DNA of 64,000 nt from an uncultured Gammaproteobacteria bacterium (lineage in GTDB: Bacteria; Patescibacteriota; Microgenomatia; Levybacterales; GWA1-39-11): the NCBI GenBank assembly GCA_964427615.1, contig CAYRUR010000003.1, positions 44,062 through 108,061 of the forward strand. Reading direction: 5' to 3'. Under the pieces are notes generated by a model. That model was given only the letters and a program-made list of their open reading frames with translations. It did not search any database and had not been told where the DNA came from. Made by a program: the position numbers and the translations under genes. This document shows positions 1,068 to 43,177 of the stretch, piece after piece (the first letter of the stretch is position 1; the number at the start of each line of letters is the position of its first letter).

Positions 1068-1152
1068 CGTCATTCTGGGGAAGCTATGCGACTCCAGAAT
1101 CTGGAACGGAATAAAATTGATTCTGGATGCACTCCGTTTACCAGAATGACAA
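1068..1152. mobile_element. MITE-like palindromic element, copy 1 (termini CGTCATTCTGG ... CCAGAATGACA, internal CCAGAATCTGG and GATTCTGG...CCAGAATG sub-repeats)
   Basis: Terminal inverted repeats read directly; homologous copies at 26092-26199 and half-copy at 13316-13351. Confidence 0.55.
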
Positions 1153-5555: not shown

Positions 5556-5677
5556 TTACAAGGTGCCACGTTGTCTGTCGCAGTTGACAGATAGTAAATG
5601 TATTATAACTCTGTAAAGTGAAGGTGACAAGAAACAGATAGGAATGGGGTATAATGCTTAGTTATTCAGTTAATAGG

Positions 5678-5765
5678 TTACGAGTTAATGAGTTAACGAG
5701 TTTATTGTTAGTATTAAGTATAGAACGAAAGTTAAAAGGCAAAATTAAAAAATCAAAAGTATCCA
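5678..5765. repeat. intergenic motif block: GTTACGA-GTTAATGA-GTTAACGA array followed by a 7-bp-period decayed tandem array (agtatta/agtatag/aacgaaa/gttaaaa/ggcaaaa/ttaaaaa/atcaaaa)
   Basis: Periodicity visible by splitting the sequence in 7-mers; same unit types recur at 30035-30125. Confidence 0.5.
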
Positions 5766-7096: not shown

Positions 7097-7305
7097 GATG
7101 AATGAGTTAATGAGTGGCGCGTTAAAGAGTTAACGAGTTGAATTTTAGTATGAAGTATTAAGTATGGCAAGAAGAGTGTAGCAGTTTGACTTAAAATACT
7201 TACTGCTTAATACTAATTTAGATTTAAGATTTTTGAAAAAAGAGCTTTACAAACTTTATAACTTTGTAAACTCTTTAACCCGTTAACTCGTAACTCGTTA
7301 ACTAA
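7097..7305. repeat. symmetric motif block upstream of uvrA: GAGTTAATGAG..GCGTTAAAGAGTTAACGAGTT + AGTATGAAGTATTAAGTATGG ... mirrored as ATACTTACTGCTTAATACT + AACTCTTTAACCCGTTAACTCGTAACTCGTTAACT; includes an 8-bp-stem hairpin TTTACAAA-n9-TTTGTAAA
   Basis: Reverse-complement motif pairs read directly; fills the ~310-bp spacer before the uvrA start. Confidence 0.5.
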
Positions 7306-13315: not shown

Positions 13316-13351
13316 TTGATTCTGGTCGTACTCCGTTTGCCAGAATGACAA
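13316..13351. mobile_element. half-copy of the GTCATTCTGG/CCAGAATGAC MITE-like family (right arm only: TTGATTCTGGTCGTACTCCGTTTGCCAGAATGACAA)
   Basis: Near-identical to right half of copy at 1068-1152. Confidence 0.45.
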
Positions 13352-24484: not shown

Positions 24485-24547
24485 AAAAGAAGAGCGTTTA
24501 GCGTATAGTGTATAGCGCTTAGATTTTAGGAAAAACTATTAAACAGA

Positions 24548-24638
24548 CGTCATTGCGATCCTGAGCTTGTCGAAGGAGAAGCAATCCCCTTACGAAAAAA
24601 GATCGCCACAGGAACTAGCGTTCCTTCGCGATGACAAT
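24548..24638. mobile_element. MITE-like element, variant family (termini CGTCATTGCGATC ... TTCGCGATGACAA) preceded by GCGTTTAGCGTATAG heptamer motifs
   Basis: Imperfect terminal inverted repeat with same GTCAT...ATGAC ends as the 1068/26092 family. Confidence 0.4.
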
Positions 24639-24768: not shown

Positions 24769-26076
24769 ATGATATCTGCCCTGCCCAAAAAAACCTTCAA
24801 AAAAATTGCGAGTTTACACCAGAAAATGCAATCATTACCCAATGAAATACGGCATTTGATATATGCCAATGCTATGCTTTCATTTGGCATGGGAGTAAGC
24901 TCTCTCTTCTTAAATATTTATCTCTGGAAACAGAGCAGCGGTCTACAAGACATCGTAACCTTTAATCTCATTCAGTATCCTGCGATTCTTTTTGCATTTA
25001 TTGTTGTAGGGATTATCAAAACTTCAGTAAAACTAAAACAAATGATGGGATTTGGATTTTTACTGTATATTGCCGGTTATGCATTGCTGATGATGTTAGG
25101 GAAACATGCAGTTGAGTACCTTCTTCCTCTTGGTTATTTATTTGGTATTGCAACTGGTTTTTATTGGGCTGGCAATAATACACTCACTTTTCTTTCAACA
25201 AAGGAAAAAAATAGAGATACTTTTTATGCACTCAATGCCTCAATTGGTTCATTTATATCAGTACTTACACCTCTTGTCAGTATGCTTGTTTTTTCTCAAT
25301 TTTTATTGCATACCCAAAGTGAATACACCCGTTATTTTTTACTTTTCTCTGTAGCCATTCTTATTTTTAGCTTTGGACTGTACTACTCGCTCAAACTGCC
25401 AAGTACACATGTGCCTAAAATTCGAGCGCGAGATACTATTAACCCCTTAAAGGATAGAATGTGGCAGATCGTTTCACTTTCACTTTTTTTTGAGGGATTT
25501 AAGGGAGGATCAGCAGGATTTATTGCATCCATCCTTACTTTCCAAGTTTTGACAACAGAGTTTGATATGGGATTATACAACAGCATTTTTGCCTTGTTAA
25601 GTGCAGCTGTTGCTTACAAGATGGCAGGGCGTTTGAATAAAAAAAATAGGATGAAGTTTGGATTTGTAGGTGCTACGTTATTTTTATTCTCTAATATTTT
25701 TTTTATAGGCATGTTTTCCTCAACTGGAATTTTAATTAGCTCTGCTATTGCTCTTTTTGCCAACCCTCTCTTTAGTGTAGGACTGGCTTCATCATTTTTC
25801 AGAGCTATAGACCACAATCCCAATCATAAAGAAGAATATTATAAATACATAACGTTTAGAGAGTTGATTCTTACTGTAGGTAGATTCTGTGGTGCATCTT
25901 TCTTTCTACTATTCTTAAATATCGGCAGCCAACTCACTATGGCAAAAGTATGGTATTTATTCTTAGGAGTTATTCCTCTGATTTATTTTCTGCTGACCCG
26001 CCATTTTGAGAAAATGATAGAAAAAGAATTAGCGTTTCAAAGTACCTCATTGCTTGAAGAAGAAGCTCAGAACTAG
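24769..26076 (+). CDS. major facilitator superfamily-like transporter (12 predicted TM helices)
   Basis: 435 aa, polytopic membrane protein with two 6-TM halves; weak MFS loop motifs. Confidence 0.5.
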   Translation: MISALPKKTFKKIASLHQKMQSLPNEIRHLIYANAMLSFGMGVSSLFLNIYLWKQSSGLQDIVTFNLIQYPAILFAFIVVGIIKTSVKLKQMMGFGFLLYIAGYALLMMLGKHAVEYLLPLGYLFGIATGFYWAGNNTLTFLSTKEKNRDTFYALNASIGSFISVLTPLVSMLVFSQFLLHTQSEYTRYFLLFSVAILIFSFGLYYSLKLPSTHVPKIRARDTINPLKDRMWQIVSLSLFFEGFKGGSAGFIASILTFQVLTTEFDMGLYNSIFALLSAAVAYKMAGRLNKKNRMKFGFVGATLFLFSNIFFIGMFSSTGILISSAIALFANPLFSVGLASSFFRAIDHNPNHKEEYYKYITFRELILTVGRFCGASFFLLFLNIGSQLTMAKVWYLFLGVIPLIYFLLTRHFEKMIEKELAFQSTSLLEEEAQN

Positions 26077-26091
26077 AAGTTATTTCAAAAC

Positions 26092-26199
26092 TGTCATTCT
26101 GGTAAGCCAATAGGCGCATCCAGAATCTCGATTGGTTCATAAATTGATTCTGGGCAAGTCCTTCGACCATGAGCTCAGGACCGAATGGCCAGAATGACT
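26092..26199. mobile_element. MITE-like palindromic element, copy 3 (CTGTCATTCTGG ... CCAGAATGACTA), 108 bp
   Basis: Same termini and internal CCAGAATCT / AATTGATTCTGG blocks as copy at 1068-1152; extra CCAGAATCAG fragment at 26238-26248. Confidence 0.55.
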
Positions 26200-26262
26200 A
26201 AATAAGGAGGTTTTGAAATGAGTTCTAGGTAACTTGTCCAGAATCAGAAAAGAGTTTATAAT

Positions 26263-27003
26263 TTGGCTTTGATTATGGACTTTATATATGCTCTTGGTAT
26301 CCCACTAGCCATTTTTTTATTAAAAACACTAAAAAAGGCAAAAGCAGGGAGGCGGTTAGGTATTACCAAAAAAAATGAAGTATTTCTGTATTTATTCTTA
26401 TTTTTAGTGTCATTTGTTCTAGTTACTTTTTTCCCAAAAGAGTTAGACCAGTTCCTTTCTTCTTTCACGGCAGGCAATCAGCAGTCCACTTCTGAAACAA
26501 AACAGCAAATATCACAAAATACAACAGTTACCCGTGTTATAGATGGCGATACAGTAGAAATACAAGGAGGAGCAAAAGTGAGATATATAGGCATAGATAC
26601 CCCGGAGTCAGTCAAACCAAATACACCTATTCAATGTTTTGCCAAAGAAGCTTCTGAGAAAAATAAAGAACTAGTATTAGGCAAAGAAGTAAGGCTTGAA
26701 AAAGATGTTTCAGAGACTGATAAATACGGAAGACTATTGCGATATGTGTATGTAGGAGACACCATGATAAATGAAGTACTAGTAAAAGAAGGATATGCAC
26801 ATGCGGTCTCATATCCTCCAGATGTTAAATATCAAGAAAAGCTACGATTTGCAGAGCAGTTTGCTCGGGAAAATAATAAAGGACTATGGAATTCATGTAA
26901 TCAAGAAAGTACTTTTAATTCACAACCCATAAATGCAGTTTTTCAGTCTCCTATTATAGAAGCAGGTAGTTCGGCAAAAAAAAGGATTCTGGGAAATGTA
27001 TAA
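26263..27003 (+). CDS. membrane-anchored thermonuclease (staphylococcal nuclease/SNase homologue)
   Basis: VTRVIDGDTVEI...RYIGIDTPE...YGRLLRYVYV...EGYAH motifs of SNase fold; N-terminal TM. Confidence 0.8.
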   Translation: MALIMDFIYALGIPLAIFLLKTLKKAKAGRRLGITKKNEVFLYLFLFLVSFVLVTFFPKELDQFLSSFTAGNQQSTSETKQQISQNTTVTRVIDGDTVEIQGGAKVRYIGIDTPESVKPNTPIQCFAKEASEKNKELVLGKEVRLEKDVSETDKYGRLLRYVYVGDTMINEVLVKEGYAHAVSYPPDVKYQEKLRFAEQFARENNKGLWNSCNQESTFNSQPINAVFQSPIIEAGSSAKKRILGNV

Positions 27004-27128: not shown

Positions 27129-28370
27129 TTACAAATGAGAGTATTCTTTTCGTATTTCCTCACGTTGATACTTGTCTGCTAGAAACCCATTTGGTTTTGT
27201 GGGTAATTTAGGTGCGTATGCCAAATATCCATTGCGCACTATATGTCCCCCATACTTTTTATTGAGACTATCTACCGCTTTTAAGAGTTTGTCTTGACGG
27301 GGATCTTCAAAAAGAGAGTAAGTAGTAACTTTTTTGTCTTCAATACTGCTCACCCAAATACTTATTTGCCGTACCATCCATTGCCAATTCCATTTTTGAT
27401 ATAAAAAGTAACATACTTCAAAAATATCTTGTCCTTTATCCATATACCTATCAGTCGTTTTTCTGCCTTGCATACTTTTTTCTCCCGCCAGAGAAAGTCC
27501 TACTGTTTTGGCTTTTTTATCTAGTTTGCGCAACTTTAATGCTACTTCTTCGCATAATTCATACATGATTTGTAAAATTCTTTCCTGGCTATATTCATTT
27601 TGAGGAAGACAATAGTTCCTGCCCACAGACTTAACTGTTTCCTGATGAGTGAAATGACGTACTAGACTCACATCTTTTCCATACGCAATATCTTTGAGAT
27701 GTAAAGCGCATACATTGCCAAATTCTTTTTTTAAATGAAAAAGAGGGTAGTCTCGTAAAGTAAGTAAATTTGTGATTCCCAGACAATACAGTCTCTTTTT
27801 CAATCGTTCTCCAATACCACACACTGTAGTCAGTTTGATTTGTGCATAAATAGTATCTAAATTTTTCTCATTAATTTCAGCAAAGCCATCTGGTTTATCA
27901 AGACCTGAGGCTAATTTTGCCAATAGTTTGTTGTGAGAAAGACCCACAGATACCGTAACCACAGGTCCAATTTCATTTCTAATGTCTGCTTTAATGCGTT
28001 CTACTACGCTAAAAATAGAAGGGTATAGATGCATGACAGGAGTCAAATCCATAAAAAGCTCATCCAAAGAAAAGAGTTCTACTATAGGACTATAACGACT
28101 GCAAATATCCAAAAACTTTTTGGTGATATCAAGATACCGGTCAAAATCAGCGGGGATAAAGATGATTTCAGGACAGATATTAACCGCTTCCCACGTACGC
28201 ATGCCTGTTTTTATGCCTTTTTTCTTTGCTTCGCGAGAAGCAGCAATAATACAAGTTCTGCCATTTGTTGCCGTAACACCAATAGGGTGATTACGTAAAT
28301 TAGGATTAAAATGTTGTTCACAGCTAGCAAAATAAGAATCAAAATCAATACAAAGAATAGTGCGTTTCAT
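27129..28370 (-). CDS. dinB: DNA polymerase IV (Y-family translesion polymerase)
   Basis: ILCIDFDSYFASCE... and SLDE motifs, little-finger domain; 413 aa. Confidence 0.85.
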   Translation of the reverse strand: MKRTILCIDFDSYFASCEQHFNPNLRNHPIGVTATNGRTCIIAASREAKKKGIKTGMRTWEAVNICPEIIFIPADFDRYLDITKKFLDICSRYSPIVELFSLDELFMDLTPVMHLYPSIFSVVERIKADIRNEIGPVVTVSVGLSHNKLLAKLASGLDKPDGFAEINEKNLDTIYAQIKLTTVCGIGERLKKRLYCLGITNLLTLRDYPLFHLKKEFGNVCALHLKDIAYGKDVSLVRHFTHQETVKSVGRNYCLPQNEYSQERILQIMYELCEEVALKLRKLDKKAKTVGLSLAGEKSMQGRKTTDRYMDKGQDIFEVCYFLYQKWNWQWMVRQISIWVSSIEDKKVTTYSLFEDPRQDKLLKAVDSLNKKYGGHIVRNGYLAYAPKLPTKPNGFLADKYQREEIRKEYSHL

Positions 28371-28545
28371 GCTGTTTTACGTTCACTTCAAGAGTACTTT
28401 ACCGTTAGAGTAAAATCCAAAACAAGTACATTTTTATCACTTTTTTAAGGGCAGTAGGAATCATAGGTGTAATAACTATATGAGAAAAATACTAGAAAAT
28501 CAATTGAATAAAAATAGAAATAACTATGACAAAATAGAGCAATTT

Positions 28546-29964
28546 TTAAGAGGAGGGAAGATCAGAAAAACGCACCTGTACTCCTTCTGTTTTTTTGTTT
28601 TTTAAAAGAGTAGAAGAAAGTATTTTATACGCATCATAGTCGAAAGAGTAATCATATGTTTTTACTTCCTGCGTATATTCAGAAATAATAGTGCGCTGGA
28701 TAATACACCATTTATCTATTAAAAATATCTCTTTATTTCCTTCATCATCTTTCTCTTCAAAAAAAATAGGGCCCGCAAACGGCCATTTTTTTATTTTGTA
28801 GTCATAGAATGCTTGCAAAAAACGGATGTTATAAAACAAGGCCTTTTCTTTTCCTACACATGCTCCTTTACACCATCCTAATTGATGCGCAAAGCAAGAT
28901 CCATTAGTGCTTTGCAAACCTAATATTTTTTGACACAATCCTCTTTCTTTAACTAAATTATTTAGTAAGTCTTTGGCTTGCTTTTTAGAACGAAAAACTC
29001 CCAAAACATTTTCAATTTCATCAACTGTTATACTCTTTTTGTGTTCTAAAACCACTGTGTCATACCCATTTTTGTCTGTTGTTTTTTTAAGATAGGTAAG
29101 GAGTCTTTTTTCACGCAATTTTCTATTGTGTAATGGCTGCATTTTTTTGATCAATTGGCTTTCTAATAATTGTGCTCCTAAGTCTCCACATGTTTTGATA
29201 GTCTCGATATGTTTTACTTCCTGAGTAAGCTGCATTTCTTTGGAAGAAGTGTAATCGCTTGAGAAATGGGAAAGCACTCTTTCTCTGATATTCTTGCTTT
29301 TTCCAATATAAAGCGGAGTAGATACATCTCCGTAAAAAATATATACACCAGGACTTTCAGGTAAGTCATTGAGTTTTTTTTCTGAAAGGTGGAGTGGAAT
29401 AGTAGGTTTTTTCAACACGTAGGAAATAGCCTCCGATATTCTCCTGTCCGGAAATTCAGTTTGCAGTTTTTTGTAAAACTCCCATACAACCTTAGCATCA
29501 TCAAATGCCCTGTGTCGTGCTTGACAAGAAATATCAAAACGTTCCATAAGGCTATCTAAGTTATGTCGAGTATGCTGAGGATATAAAAAACGGGAAAGCT
29601 TTACCGTACACAGATGTTTGCTGGTAAAAGAAATACTATGTCTTCTGAATTCATTGCGTAAAAATCCGTAATCAAAGCGCACGTTATGTGCCACAAAAAT
29701 ACATCCTGCAAGCATTTGTAAAATTTCTTCTTTTTTGTCTTCAAAAAAAGGAGCTCTTTCTAAATCTTGTTTTGAAATACCAGTAAGACTTTCAATAAAA
29801 GGAGAAACATGCATACCAGGGTTCAGAAGCGTTGAAAACTGGTCTATAACTTTATTTTCCTCAACTCGCAGGATGCCTATTTCAATAATTTTGTCATACA
29901 CAGGGCTATTTCCTGTGGTCTCTATATCAACAAAAGCAAGAGAAGAAGGAAGATCTTTTACCAT
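28546..29964 (-). CDS. fusion protein: N-terminal DEDDh 3'-5' exonuclease (DnaQ-like) + C-terminal GIY-YIG nuclease domain
   Basis: FVDIETTGNSP...HNVRFDYGFL...RHRAFDDA (Exo I-III); GVYIFYGD...LYIGKSKNIRERVLSHF (GIY-YIG). Confidence 0.75.
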   Translation of the reverse strand: MVKDLPSSLAFVDIETTGNSPVYDKIIEIGILRVEENKVIDQFSTLLNPGMHVSPFIESLTGISKQDLERAPFFEDKKEEILQMLAGCIFVAHNVRFDYGFLRNEFRRHSISFTSKHLCTVKLSRFLYPQHTRHNLDSLMERFDISCQARHRAFDDAKVVWEFYKKLQTEFPDRRISEAISYVLKKPTIPLHLSEKKLNDLPESPGVYIFYGDVSTPLYIGKSKNIRERVLSHFSSDYTSSKEMQLTQEVKHIETIKTCGDLGAQLLESQLIKKMQPLHNRKLREKRLLTYLKKTTDKNGYDTVVLEHKKSITVDEIENVLGVFRSKKQAKDLLNNLVKERGLCQKILGLQSTNGSCFAHQLGWCKGACVGKEKALFYNIRFLQAFYDYKIKKWPFAGPIFFEEKDDEGNKEIFLIDKWCIIQRTIISEYTQEVKTYDYSFDYDAYKILSSTLLKNKKTEGVQVRFSDLPSS

Positions 29965-30034
29965 AAGAAAAGTACCACCATACTAGCAAAAGAGGCATCT
30001 CATTAGCAAGCAATTAAATCTAAAACTAGTATAA

Positions 30035-30125
30035 AGTATGAAGAAGTAAGTAGTAAGTATAGAAAGAAATTAAAAAATAAAAAGTCAAAAAGCAAAAGTA
30101 GATGGCAAAAGTAAAAAGTTTTAAG
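30035..30125. repeat. 7-bp-period decayed tandem array, 13 units (agtatga/agaagta/agtagta/agtatag/aaagaaa/ttaaaaa/.../gcaaaag/taaaaag)
   Basis: Same unit vocabulary as 5710-5765 array. Confidence 0.5.
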
Positions 30126-30318
30126 ATTCTGTATATACTACATACTATATACTAAATACCCACTTTTAACTCTTTAACGCGCAATCCATTAACTTACTTG
30201 TACTTAAGCCCTAACCACTCAACGATACCGGCCCTGTACCAGACGGTACGGGACGGGCTTCGTAACCGTTTACCAAAAATCAATCCTCCTCATGGATCCT
30301 GAATTAAATTCAGGATGA

Positions 30319-30560
30319 CAAGCTTTGGTAGTTTTATATTTTTTCTAAACGCTAAACGCTTCTCTTTCTGGATCCTAAATCCCTCCTTTGTCAAGGCTTC
30401 GGAAGGGCACAGCAAGTTCCTCCGATTTGATTGCAGTTCAGGCCTAGGCTCTGAAGAGCCTTCAAGTAAAAGATACTGTAAGTGCTCGTAGAGATGACAC
30501 ATTTGTGGTGGTTTTAGTAATTTTTTCTAAACGCTAAACCCTATACGCTAAACGCTTGCT
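30319..30560. repeat. pair of ~45-bp direct repeats (GGT..TTTT..ATTTTTTCTAAACGCTAAAC(G/C)CT...) ~190 bp apart, each containing (CTAAACG)x2; between them hairpins ATCCTGAATT/AATTCAGGAT and AGGCTCT-ga-AGAGCCT
   Basis: Read directly; the annotated minus-strand 70-aa ORF 30290-30502 lies wholly in this repeat region and is probably spurious. Confidence 0.4.
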
Positions 30561-30595
30561 CTCTGTTTACTGTTTTCTGTTCTCTGCCTTCTTCT

Positions 30596-30623
30596 TAATT
30601 CCTAATTCATAATTCTTAATTCG
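30596..30623. repeat. tandem heptamer array (TAATTCN)x4: ttaattcc taattca taattct taattcg
   Basis: Read directly. Confidence 0.55.
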
Positions 30624-30669
30624 TACCTTCCAACTCGTTAACCCGTTAATAACCAATAAAGAATAATTT

Positions 30670-30706
30670 CTAAACCCTAAACCCTAAGCCCTAAACGCTA
30701 AACGCT
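30670..30706. repeat. tandem heptamer array (CTAAACS)x5: ctaaacc ctaaacc ctaagcc ctaaacg ctaaacg (telomere-like CCCTAAA-type motif)
   Basis: Read directly; same heptamer also at 30345-30360, 30527-30556 and reverse-complemented at 5823-5850 and 24493-24520. Confidence 0.6.
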
Positions 30707-30793
30707 CCATACTCACACACCTCCCTCCTTTTTCTCACCTTATCCTTACATTTTGTACCTACAATAGAGTTTCATTATTCTTATTGCATTATT

Positions 30794-32831: not shown

Positions 32832-32896
32832 TCTCGAATAATATATTGATCTCACTAGAGTTCTACTCAAATTTACTACATTACAATTACAACACT

Positions 32897-33550
32897 TTAT
32901 TCTTCAGCTAATGATTGAGTGTAACCTAATTTAACAAGTTCTTCATACGCAGACCACACATCTTCTGGTATATCCTGAGGAATTTGATATCCCTTTTCTG
33001 CATATAATTTGATGCGTTGCAAATCACCTACCATAGATTGTATCGAAGCATCTTTACCTCTAGGAGAGGTATTCATATATTCATCATAGGAAACTTGGGG
33101 AGAGCTCATGATTACTTCTACTTCTGGCCATTGTTTTTTTATAGTCGCATATGTTCTTCTTTCTATATATGGCTTTTGAACAACAATAATGCGTTTTGCA
33201 TGAATTCCATGCTTTTCTAGTAAAGCTTTTGTAAAAAGCGTATTTTCACCTGAATTTTTTGTTTGAGTCTCTAATAGTACATTTTCTTTTGGTAACCCAA
33301 ATTCCTGAGCTGCTTCAGATAATGTCTCTGCTTCTGTCTTATCCCAAGAAGCAGTGGAATCACTTTTATGACCTGAAAAAACAACAATCGGAGCATAGCC
33401 TTGTAAAAAAAGTTCTGCTGCTCGTTTGCCAATGGTGGGATTATAGCTGCCAAATACCACAATCGCATCTGCCTTTTTTAAAGTATGATGCATGAGGCTA
33501 TAATTCCAGATCCTCTTTGCAAGATTATCTATATATTCTCTTGAGGGCAT
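32897..33550 (-). CDS. DUF218 (YdcF/SanA/ElyC-like) domain protein, copy 1
   Basis: AIVVFGS...VVFSG...ENTLFTKALL pattern; 217 aa; ~92% aa identity to paralogue at 38840-39493. Confidence 0.5.
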   Translation of the reverse strand: MPSREYIDNLAKRIWNYSLMHHTLKKADAIVVFGSYNPTIGKRAAELFLQGYAPIVVFSGHKSDSTASWDKTEAETLSEAAQEFGLPKENVLLETQTKNSGENTLFTKALLEKHGIHAKRIIVVQKPYIERRTYATIKKQWPEVEVIMSSPQVSYDEYMNTSPRGKDASIQSMVGDLQRIKLYAEKGYQIPQDIPEDVWSAYEELVKLGYTQSLAEE

Positions 33551-38734: not shown

Positions 38735-38839
38735 ATTTTTTTGTGGAGTAGTACTTTCCAAGTATTCTTCTAACTAAAACCCATCTTTATTTCTTAAACT
38801 ATCAAGTTGTTTAATGTTTTAGTTAACATTTAAGATGTC

Positions 38840-39493
38840 TCATTCTTCAGCTAATGATTGATCATAACCCAGTTTAACCAACTCTTCATATGCTTCCCAA
38901 ACATCTTGTGGTATTTCCTGAGGAATTTGGTATCCTTTTTCTGCATATAATTTGATCCGTTGCAAATCACCTACCATAGATTGTATTGATGCATCTTTTC
39001 CTCTGGGAGAAGTATTCATGTATTCATCATAGGAAACTTGGGGAGAGCTCATGATTACTTCTACTTCTGGCCATTGTTTTTTGATAGTAGCATATGTTCT
39101 TCTTTCTATGTATGGCTTTTGAACAACAATAATACGTTTTGCATAAATTCCATGCTTTTCCAGTAAAGCTTTTGAAAAGAGCGTATTTTCACCTGAATTT
39201 TTTGCTTGAGTCTCTAACAATATATTTTCTTTTGGCAACCCAAACTCCTGGGCTGCTTCAGATAATACTTCTGCCTCTGTTTTATCCCAAGAAGCTGTAG
39301 AATCACTTCTATTACCTGAGAAAACAACAACCGGAGCATATTCTCGTAGAAAAAGTTCTGCTACTCGCTTAGCAACAATAGGATTATAACTACCAAATAC
39401 CACAATAGCATCTGCCTTTTTTAGCTCATGATGCATGAGACTATAATCCCAAATCTTTTTAGCAAGATTGTCTATGTATTCTTCTGAGGACAT
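38840..39493 (-). CDS. DUF218 (YdcF/SanA/ElyC-like) domain protein, copy 2 (ORF extends to 39529 but start at Met 39493 aligns with copy 1)
   Basis: Near-identical to 32897-33550 product. Confidence 0.5.
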   Translation of the reverse strand: MSSEEYIDNLAKKIWDYSLMHHELKKADAIVVFGSYNPIVAKRVAELFLREYAPVVVFSGNRSDSTASWDKTEAEVLSEAAQEFGLPKENILLETQAKNSGENTLFSKALLEKHGIYAKRIIVVQKPYIERRTYATIKKQWPEVEVIMSSPQVSYDEYMNTSPRGKDASIQSMVGDLQRIKLYAEKGYQIPQEIPQDVWEAYEELVKLGYDQSLAEE

Positions 39494-41450: not shown

Positions 41451-42083
41451 TTACAACGAAGAACGAAATCCAATTAACACAAGAAAAATCACTGCTATTG
41501 CTGGAGTTAGCAACATTAGCAGAATATTAATTCCTAAGTTAGAAATAAGACTCCATGCAATGTCATCTCTCTTAAGCTTAAATAAAGATAATACAATTAT
41601 TAGGAAGACATTCCCCACTATCCAGATTAAATAACCGTACTTTAAAGATGTTAGATTTAAAAAGTGGGCTGCAATAATCTCAAGTGGGTTGTAGAAAATT
41701 GTACTCAGCTCACCTGAAAAAAGGATCCAAACAAGAAATAGTGTGCTGGTAACTAAGTAAGCTAGCAATAAGTTAGGAACAATACTCAATGCACTGTTCT
41801 CTCTCTTAAGTTTAAATAAAGATAATACAATTGTTAGAAAAATATTTCCCACCATCCAGCTTAGATAACCGTACTTAAAGGTCATTAGAATGAAAAAGTA
41901 GGCTACAATAATCATAAGTGGATCGTAGTTACCCAGATTACTCAGTTTATCCCGATCACCTGAAGAAAGCGTCCAGACAAAAGACATCCAGACAAGAGGT
42001 AGCGTGTTGGTAACTAAGTAAGCTAGCACCCCAAATTTAATATGTTTTAATATTCTTCTCACAGAATGTACATTATTATACAC
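41451..42083 (-). CDS. hypothetical membrane protein built from an internal tandem duplication (~80-aa 2-TM unit x2)
   Basis: Repeat units AYLVTNTLPLVW...KYGYLSWMVGNIFLTIVLSLFKLKRE and AYLVTSTLFLVW...KYGYLIWIVGNVFLIIVLSLFKLKRD; nucleotide-level duplication visible (~41556-42020). Confidence 0.4.
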   Translation of the reverse strand: MYNNVHSVRRILKHIKFGVLAYLVTNTLPLVWMSFVWTLSSGDRDKLSNLGNYDPLMIIVAYFFILMTFKYGYLSWMVGNIFLTIVLSLFKLKRENSALSIVPNLLLAYLVTSTLFLVWILFSGELSTIFYNPLEIIAAHFLNLTSLKYGYLIWIVGNVFLIIVLSLFKLKRDDIAWSLISNLGINILLMLLTPAIAVIFLVLIGFRSSL

Positions 42084-43101: not shown

Positions 43102-43177
43102 TGGCGCCCCTGGAGGGAATCGAACCCCCAACCTTTTCCTTAGAAGGGAACTGCTCTGTCCGTTGAGCTACAGAGGC
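43102..43177 (-). tRNA. tRNA-Arg (anticodon TCT), CCA encoded
   Basis: Reverse complement: acceptor GCCTCTG/CAGGGGC (one U-G), D GCTC-aacggaca-GAGC, anticodon stem TTCC/GGAA loop cTTCTaa, T-arm GGGGG-ttcgatt-CCCTC, then GCCA. Confidence 0.65.

Follow-up and report, generated by a model that had tools for sequence, protein, structure and literature searches.

The 64,000-nucleotide stretch of contig CAYRUR010000003.1 analysed here (GenBank assembly GCA_964427615.1; Patescibacteriota, Levybacterales), hereafter the window, carries short palindromic elements between its genes that are probably the non-autonomous, gene-less miniatures of a mobile-element family of Patescibacteria (CPR, the candidate phyla radiation) whose full form encodes a small GIY-YIG nuclease. 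The family has sharp boundaries and is dispersed to unrelated sites, including in-frame positions within conserved genes; its members are inserted without target-site duplication, are flanked by an inverted pyrimidine...purine (Y...R) pair, and the nuclease gene is systematically bounded by the repeat units of the family. More tentatively, we suggest that these elements may represent a new class of mobile DNA, in which a minimal Slx1-like GIY-YIG nuclease, and not a DDE, HUH, serine or tyrosine recombinase, would mobilise hairpin-bounded cassettes together with gene-less miniatures.

The building block of the family is a hairpin unit of general form GTC-A(N6)-[loop or variable module]-(N6')T-C, with ATTCTGG/CCAGAAT as the main stem in the window, and an element comprises two such units in inverted orientation, separated by a spacer of 0-33 nt and with ends reading GTCATTCTGG...CCAGAATGAC. 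Four 7-mers alternate along each element in the order ATTCTGG, CCAGAAT, ATTCTGG, CCAGAAT, a layout found in 87 distinct elements of other genomes, and short elements measure 63-119 bp with perfect termini of 10 bp. The modules fall into classes (GGAG...GACT, TAAG...GCAT, C...CTTGT or bare CTTGT, CACC...ATTGT, and CGAAAG) that combine freely to give mosaic elements, as seen in the 87 elements parsed. Short units of the form G-A(N6)-NCAAG-(N6')T-GAC were collected across loci (n = 138), and 132 of these were perfectly complementary, with 13 different stems; loop and GTC/GAC flanks stayed constant across all 13 stem variants. Given this complementarity across so many stems, it is the structure of the stem that is conserved, not its sequence.

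Within the window, the 10-mer GTCATTCTGG or its reverse complement occurs exactly five times (at 1069, 1141(-), 13340(-), 26093 and 26189(-)), against a chance expectation of approximately 0.1. A first-pass annotation, made from the letters alone, had described a family with terminal inverted repeats in at least three copies plus a variant; this family is real, its boundaries have been refined and two more pieces added (26222-26245 and 30295-30319; Table 1), and the claimed internal blocks CCAGAATC and GATTCTGG are indeed there. What had been read as a right-half copy at 13316-13351 is indeed there, at 13318-13349, but it is simply one unit and not a half, and is kin to copy 1's right unit, with 80% identity over 55 nt (repeat family D5). 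The proposed relationship of the variant at 24548-24638 also holds, since this element has GTCAT...ATGAC termini and compensatory stem changes that place it in the same superfamily: its left unit has the stem ATTGC/GCAAT and its right unit (24601-24635) the stem ATCGCG/CGCGAT. Both the variant, with its ATTGC and ATCGC stems, and the ATCCTGA-stem unit at 30295 are members of a wider superfamily. The degenerate unit at 26222-26245 carries an additional CCAGAAT at 26238, and its CTTGT-CCAGAATC corresponds to the short module class of the family. Copy 1 has a predicted folding energy of -33.1 kcal/mol (z -5.3 against shuffled controls), copy 2 of -38.5 kcal/mol (z -3.1) and the variant of -29.6 kcal/mol (z -3.2), and the fold of the solo unit at 13318-13349 did not reach significance against such controls (z -0.85). 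With one solo unit, one degenerate unit and approximately 80% identity between copies, the window copies are old, decaying relics, and their present effect is probably neutral, or merely that of RNA hairpins between genes. Logan contigs of the window organism break off at these repeats.

The distribution of the family was assessed by scanning one genome per species, for 185,579 species and 596 Gb, with the pattern GTCATTCTGG-N58-88-CCAGAATGAC. At least 119 loci matched, where approximately 17 are expected by chance (an estimate), and the inner blocks shared by 87 elements cannot arise randomly. Most of the matches listed are from Patescibacteria, with Roizman-, Gottesman-, Curtiss-, Davies-, Shapiro-, Howlett-, Magasanik- and Komeilibacteria, Kazan and Saccharibacteria among the hosts, and for a minority the bin label is Beta-, Alpha- or Gammaproteobacteria, Dehalococcoidia or another group, a label that is doubtful for some of the bins. 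No carriage by viruses was found in 2.9 million viral contigs, either of the DNA pattern or of the nuclease protein, and Rfam gave no match at the gathering threshold across the whole window and none at E values up to 1 for the element regions. A second family with the same 10-bp termini, made of a single long near-perfect hairpin (GTCATTCTGGAAGAACCTTCCCTCG...), was also encountered (loci L003, L023, L031, L036, L043, L049, L077, L086, L088, L112 and L117) and is multi-copy in one bin labelled Cytophagia and two unclassified bins.

The full-length form is approximately 350-400 bp long, and the spacer between its units carries the gene for a 91-102 aa nuclease of the Slx1/UPF0213 type. Three loci from different lineages hold elements of 348-403 bp with the same termini and units and an open reading frame (ORF) of approximately 90-100 aa in the spacer. 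The ORF matches the Pfam GIY-YIG family (PF01541) with E values of 5e-12 to 1.5e-11, no match was obtained in NCBIfam, and across 31 sequences the catalytic Tyr, Arg, His, Glu and Asn positions show little or no variation. The AlphaFold model is a confident prediction of a single domain (pLDDT 91.9). Among solved structures it comes closest to the UPF0213 proteins BH0048 and EF2693, followed by Slx1 and after that by the UvrC N-terminal domain, with weak statistics as expected for 90 residues; PDB 1zg2 is the top fold match and gave an E value of 4.5e-4 by sequence. At least 7,986 protein clusters match the nuclease at E 1e-10 or better, the named ones coming from CPR lineages.

The tie between this gene and the repeat units is also seen in a metagenome search that used the protein only: at 58 of the 80 homologue loci the ORF has both GTCATTC[TC]GG and its complement no more than 220 nt away, the chance rate of a terminus being approximately 4e-4 per side, and several of the remaining 22 are truncated or have near-miss termini. 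The cassette has a constant order, namely a variable 5' unit, a short leader (with a TATAAT-like box in one subfamily), the ORF and a short 3' unit (G-ATTCYGG-ACAAG-CCRGAAT-GAC), and the stop codon of the nuclease is often the TGA of the right terminus. In a Levybacteria genome a cassette of 356 bp sits 2 nt past one gene and 10 nt ahead of the next. The nearest-neighbour nuclease had the same stem type in every case, and identity was 69.6% within stem types against 59.0% between them, a difference reached in none of 2000 permutations; at the level of the sequences compared, nuclease and units are thus shown to be inherited together. The homology of window copy 2 to two nuclease cassettes (L122 and L180) exceeds the 10-bp ends, since its right unit can be aligned with theirs along the entire module. 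A different arrangement was seen in a Howlettbacteria contig (L045, 1-520), where a more distant small GIY-YIG gene lies between an intact tRNA-Lys(CTT) and a tRNA-like pseudo-copy with the same 5' and 3' parts, in which hairpins take the place of the anticodon arm; the arrangement suggests a further insertion style of the protein family.

The first-pass annotation had called the window elements MITE-like (after miniature inverted-repeat transposable elements) and non-autonomous, and had proposed looking for a cognate enzyme of the IS630/Tc1, IS200/IS605 or TnpB type. The elements are indeed gene-less and dispersed, and a longer protein-coding form exists elsewhere, but the partner is a GIY-YIG nuclease and target-site duplication is absent; no enzyme of the proposed types was found, and the gene between the units encodes the small nuclease. 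Its statement that the window has no transposase agrees with the Pfam annotation, which gave neither transposase nor integrase among most ORFs of at least 100 aa plus three shorter ones, nor in precomputed Pfam calls for the block from uvrA to the glycosyltransferase gene. A search of the six-frame translation of the window with a hidden Markov model of the nuclease detected no copy of the gene.

Evidence for dispersal comes from copies within a genome and from filled and empty sites. One Patescibacteria metagenome-assembled genome contains four copies, three of them 97-99% identical, that can be aligned solely from GTCAT to ATGAC and whose flanks are unrelated from the first base outside. In a Curtissbacteria operon a short element occupies a spacer whose orthologue in two related contigs is without it. 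Insertion sites are mutually unrelated and elements occur in both orientations. We found no target-site duplication, a further feature for which the first-pass annotation had suggested looking, in 175 of 192 elements, there being no direct repeat at the junctions; instead the flanks of these 192 elements form an inverted Y...R pair, with a pyrimidine at position -1 in 94% and a purine at +1. Complementary flank pairs are over-represented (TA in 71 and CG in 48 elements; also CA in 27 and TG in 25), and flanking inverted repeats of at least 7 nt occur at 22 of 192 elements as compared with 9.3 in shuffled controls, a modest enrichment of approximately twofold. In two clear cases (L057 and L076) the loop of a terminator hairpin harbours the element. 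Copy 2 in the window is bracketed by an outer inverted repeat (Table 1), and copy 1 likewise by an arm at 1058-1066 and GTTCTGAAA at 1164-1172, the pattern being TTTCAAAAC...GTTYTGAAA; these outer repeats may be a pre-existing hairpin used as insertion target. Indels between near-identical Curtissbacteria contigs were considered as recent transpositions of the element, a reading that was ruled out as the indels are other sequences: two contigs with 100% identical flanks (L213 and L214) differ by a 143-nt two-hairpin segment with GTCA repeats at its bounds and by a 70-nt indel, which splits serS in one contig, and neither is an ATTCTGG element.

Insertion is not confined to spacers, as 18 of 89 elements lie within frames that are open for at least 150 nt on both sides. 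The host genes encode UvrD/PcrA (twice), DnaX, NusA, MurB, an ATP-dependent DNA ligase, a MutY-like glycosylase, an acyl-CoA synthetase, a nicotinate phosphoribosyltransferase and several large membrane proteins, and the element-encoded peptides start with RHSG, VILG or SFW and end with QND or ARMT. When the two UvrD proteins are aligned, either insertion appears as a clean gap in the other, at variable loops. Six translated elements gave no NCBIfam or Pfam match at E values up to 10, and no element was found inside an rRNA gene among the loci collected. Elements with different modules occupy the same position in homologous large membrane proteins of Gottesmanbacteria (L070, 3104-3188) and Roizmanbacteria (L084, 2695-2783), the former breaking the reading frame; this may stem from an old insertion, from a hot spot or from misassembly.

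Branched DNA is the substrate of Slx1, a nuclease of the structure-specific kind (Dunin-Horkawicz et al., 2006; PMC1564403), and such an activity would fit a substrate made of hairpins or a cruciform. By analogy with such enzymes, we infer that the cassette nuclease, acting in trans, would recognise the hairpin or cruciform formed by the units and nick at or near the GTC boundary. A GIY-YIG enzyme is hydrolytic and cannot carry out strand transfer, so the remaining steps would need the host: copying or insertion might be finished by the replication and repair machinery of the host, or the snapped-back element might be ligated into a nick. In the latter case a single strand whose paired termini hold its 5' and 3' ends close to each other could be ligated, which would leave no duplication and would explain why the termini need to pair.

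Several observations weigh against a nuclease-driven element of this kind. Two identical nuclease proteins are each present on many contigs (14 and 24 contigs read) and each represents one conserved locus, and hence those populations give no sign of ongoing transposition. The 3' unit beside the ORF is nearly always of the short ACAAG type and many short elements have two long modules, so that simple internal deletion of a cassette is insufficient to account for all short forms. There are also hybrids (L140, L142 and L186), in which a left unit of the ATTCTGG type is paired with a right unit of the ATTCCGG type. Finally, the lengths of in-ORF elements leave remainders of 0, 1 and 2 on division by three in 4, 4 and 10 elements respectively; not all being multiples of three, either the junctions vary by 0-2 nt or elements were adjusted after insertion, and the inserted unit or its junctions are not fully defined. 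A fixed target duplication of 1-2 nt as a frame-keeping device was rejected, with lengths in all three residue classes.

The main rival explanation is that of a secondary invader, in which the doublets are an independent repeat family spreading by some other means and the GIY-YIG gene is a free-standing homing endonuclease that settled in the spacer, the units serving as homology arms for the conversion of gene-less copies. The ORF does lie in the spacer in all cases, it is tightly tied to the short 3' unit whilst the 5' unit is as variable as in short elements, the mismatched-stem hybrids noted above exist, nuclease-bearing copies are rare (three complete ones among the 119 loci listed), and GIY-YIG enzymes are known as homing endonucleases (PMC1564403, PMC11270868). 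We nevertheless consider this unlikely. Nuclease clades follow stem type perfectly at the nearest-neighbour level, the stop codon of the ORF is part of the terminus, the protein is a bare catalytic domain that lacks a DNA-binding domain of the homing-enzyme kind (PMC1564403), and no other candidate mobilising enzyme was seen in the loci inspected. Even under secondary invasion the window elements would still be the non-coding partners of a GIY-YIG element.

The remaining explanations are much less probable. REPINs are hairpin doublets without target-site duplication and mostly intergenic. Mobilisation of the present doublets by a RAYT, a Y1 HUH transposase resembling those of IS200/IS605 and with its gene elsewhere, would likewise suit the imperfect hairpins, which form inverted doublets and have a conserved 5' tri-nucleotide, the missing duplications and the mostly intergenic location. 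We regard it as very unlikely, as in 58 of 80 cases the units enclose a gene for a GIY-YIG nuclease and the window has no transposase by Pfam, the pattern-found loci having not been scanned with a Y1 model. Even less can be said for host regulatory palindromes, that is operators, terminators or structured non-coding RNA kept for function at these genes, despite the strong predicted hairpins, the location of every window copy between genes and termini like an outward-pointing -35 hexamer. The same element is found at unrelated sites in both orientations, inside coding sequences and in many genomes, it is missing from the syntenic regions of the nearest relatives, its interiors are mosaic and Rfam is without a match even at E values up to 1. 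The first-pass annotation had reserved the regulatory interpretation for a family restricted to the window copies and without flanking duplications; duplications are absent, but the copies are many (at least 119 loci in the 185,579 species genomes), dispersed and also present in coding sequences, and a test resting on duplications is therefore misleading towards a regulatory palindrome. A regulatory role as origin is thus disfavoured, later co-option of individual copies being possible. Least probable of all is a classical MITE, derived by deletion from a DDE insertion sequence, for example one of the IS630/Tc1 type. As a MITE would be, the elements are small, bear inverted repeats at their termini and are present in multiple copies (two full ones in the window and at least 87 distinct elsewhere), but target-site duplication is missing from 175 of 192 elements, their flanks are an inverted Y...R pair and not a direct TA repeat, and the long forms that share these termini code for a GIY-YIG nuclease and no DDE enzyme or other known class of transposase.

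All copies in the window are intergenic, as the first-pass annotation had stated, and none lies inside a gene. It had placed copy 1 upstream of lexA, which is wrong, since lexA (1306-2019) is on the minus strand and copy 1 sits 155 nt 3' of its stop codon; the copy is upstream of a small minus-strand ORF (780-953), between the start of that ORF and the lexA stop at 1306. On the minus strand of 1045-1073 the terminus ATGACG is followed 17 nt on by TATACT, giving a promoter-like score directed from copy 1 to ORF 780-953, and the termini of the elements in general (ATGACA/G) resemble an outward-pointing -35 hexamer. Copy 2 begins 17 nt past the stop of an MFS transporter gene (24769-26076; closest homologue 53% identical) and precedes the thermonuclease gene (26263-27003), as had been claimed. 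The solo unit at 13318-13349 occupies a 196-nt spacer between uvrC and the DUF360 gene which measures 21 nt in the two nearest relatives, L202 being the closer. ATTCTGG elements are absent from 13-17 kb of the two nearest relatives, which have the same gene order and 81% UvrA identity and are too diverged from the window for insertion junctions to be defined; the window UvrA is approximately 72% identical to named Levybacteria proteins.

Table 1. Palindromic elements and associated repeats in the window (copies 1 and 2 are the full gene-less doublets).
Feature	Position	Length	Strand	Sequence or remark
Copy 1, full gene-less doublet	1069-1150	82 bp	.	
Copy 1, left unit	1069-1101			GTC-ATTCTGG-GGAAGCTATGCGACT-CCAGAAT-C
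Copy 1, spacer	1102-1118			
Copy 1, right unit (inverted)	1119-1150			module TAAACGGAGTGCAT
Copy 2, full gene-less doublet	26093-26198	106 bp	.	
Copy 2, left unit	26093-26127			module TAAGCCAATAGGCGCAT
Copy 2, spacer	26128-26145			
Copy 2, right unit	26146-26198			module ...GGTCCTGAGC..GGTCGAAGGACTTGC
Solo unit	13318-13349		-	GTC-ATTCTGG-CAAACGGAGTACGA-CCAGAAT-C
Variant doublet, same superfamily	24549-24635	87 bp	.	termini GTCATTGCGA...TCGCGATGAC
Degenerate unit	26222-26245		+	GTTCTAGG-TAACTTGT-CCAGAATC; 23 nt right of copy 2
Solo unit, other stem	30295-30319		-	GTC-ATCCTGA-ATTTAAT-TCAGGAT-C; perfect 7-bp stem
Outer inverted repeat at copy 2 (I12), left arm	26083-26091		+	TTTCAAAAC
Outer inverted repeat at copy 2 (I12), partner	26210-26218			GTTTTGAAA
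Heptamer-like repeat sites	5668-5761, 7105-7158, 7267-7303, 24492-24532			
Heptamer-like repeat sites, continued	30166-30194, 30338-30360, 30520-30556, 30662-30707			

Other features of the window are recorded here in their own right. Short heptamer-like repeats (TAAACGC, TTAGCGT and AGTTAAC/GAGTTAAT) occur in both orientations in many intergenic spacers and make up most of the 830-nt spacer 29965-30793, which also holds the unit at 30295-30319; similar TAACAAT-type runs lie beside elements in Roizman- and Shapirobacteria loci (L075 and L100). On the minus strand of 27129-29964 a Y-family polymerase gene (impB/mucB type) adjoins a gene for a 472-aa fusion of an RNase_T exonuclease and a GIY-YIG domain; both are repair genes of the host, and this GIY-YIG domain is distinct from the small cassette nuclease. 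A 300-nt direct repeat of 86% identity (32870-33169 and 38813-39112) corresponds to two DUF218 genes, and the metal-resistance block between them (CsoR-like repressor, DUF305, cupredoxin, P-type ATPase and a DsbD-cupredoxin protein) has the appearance of an acquired island. From approximately 43400 to 64000 all genes are on the plus strand, with strong GC skew and with YopX, RecT, VRR-NUC, a DnaQ-like exonuclease and an SU10-type adaptor; this block adjoins tRNA-Arg (43102-43177) and is probably a prophage. A 160-nt tandem repeat of 82% identity (41535-41694 and 41769-41928) lies inside a minus-strand ORF (41451-42083) that has no Pfam match.

If mobilisation by the nuclease is borne out, it would give a role to a very large orphan family of small GIY-YIG/UPF0213-like proteins, and would do so with a type of nuclease not known to drive transposon-like spread in bacteria. 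It would also account for extra peptide segments in essential and conserved Patescibacteria proteins, and may explain the non-intron GIY-YIG insertions and short insertions in Patescibacteria rRNA genes. The elements break assemblies and create spurious ORFs and gene splits in bins, such that a family model would improve annotation, and a 90-residue enzyme recognising DNA hairpins could serve as a reagent. The searchable literature yielded no description of these termini, of a CPR MITE or of a bacterial GIY-YIG gene bounded by inverted repeats, the terminal sequences occurring there in primers only, and, as a combination, a palindromic miniature repeat and a minimal GIY-YIG nuclease seem to be undescribed.

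Amongst known systems, Rickettsia palindromic elements (RPEs) are short palindromic repeats of a reduced genome that are found both between genes and in frame within conserved genes, where they add a peptide segment. NCBIfam contains RPE domain models, and to our knowledge no enzyme is associated with RPEs. The Patescibacteria elements resemble them in being both intergenic and inside open frames (18 of 89), and differ in that the six translated elements have no NCBIfam match, there is no sequence relation, the full form holds a GIY-YIG nuclease gene and the hosts belong to another phylum. With the REP/REPIN-RAYT system they have in common that the 5' flank of the hairpin unit is conserved, that units form inverted doublets, that target-site duplication is lacking and that a cognate gene is flanked by units; the gene, however, encodes a hydrolytic GIY-YIG nuclease and not a Y1 HUH transposase, and the elements are mosaic inside and frequently located in coding sequences.

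Free-standing GIY-YIG homing genes, such as the phage seg genes and relatives of I-TevI, are likewise selfish GIY-YIG nuclease genes (Dunin-Horkawicz et al., 2006; PMC1564403). The cassette nuclease differs from these as a bare 91-102 aa domain of the Slx1/UPF0213 branch, without NUMOD or helix-turn-helix domain, which is absent from the 2.9 million viral contigs, and the cassette is bounded by structured inverted repeats and has gene-less derivatives at many unrelated sites. The stand-alone UPF0213 proteins BH0048 and EF2693 have the same fold and size as the cassette nuclease. Dunin-Horkawicz et al. (2006; PMC1564403) regarded prokaryotic Slx1-like proteins as inherited mainly vertically, cited literature predicting a role in repair, and described one recent insertion into an HsdR gene, raising the question of whether more GIY-YIG proteins are parasites; in contrast to vertical inheritance, a large Patescibacteria branch of the UPF0213/Slx1-like proteins is the cargo of a bounded repeat element. 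A 2024 survey of insertions in CPR rRNA genes (PMC11270868) reports that all GIY-YIG ORFs lie in insertions unlike group I or group II introns, at poorly conserved and scattered sites, and that many short (<200 bp) insertions without an ORF occur beside them. Inverted repeats or hairpins, a hallmark of the Patescibacteria elements, are not mentioned for these insertions in the main text as far as it was searched; the CPR rRNA insertions plausibly belong to the same family as the elements described here.

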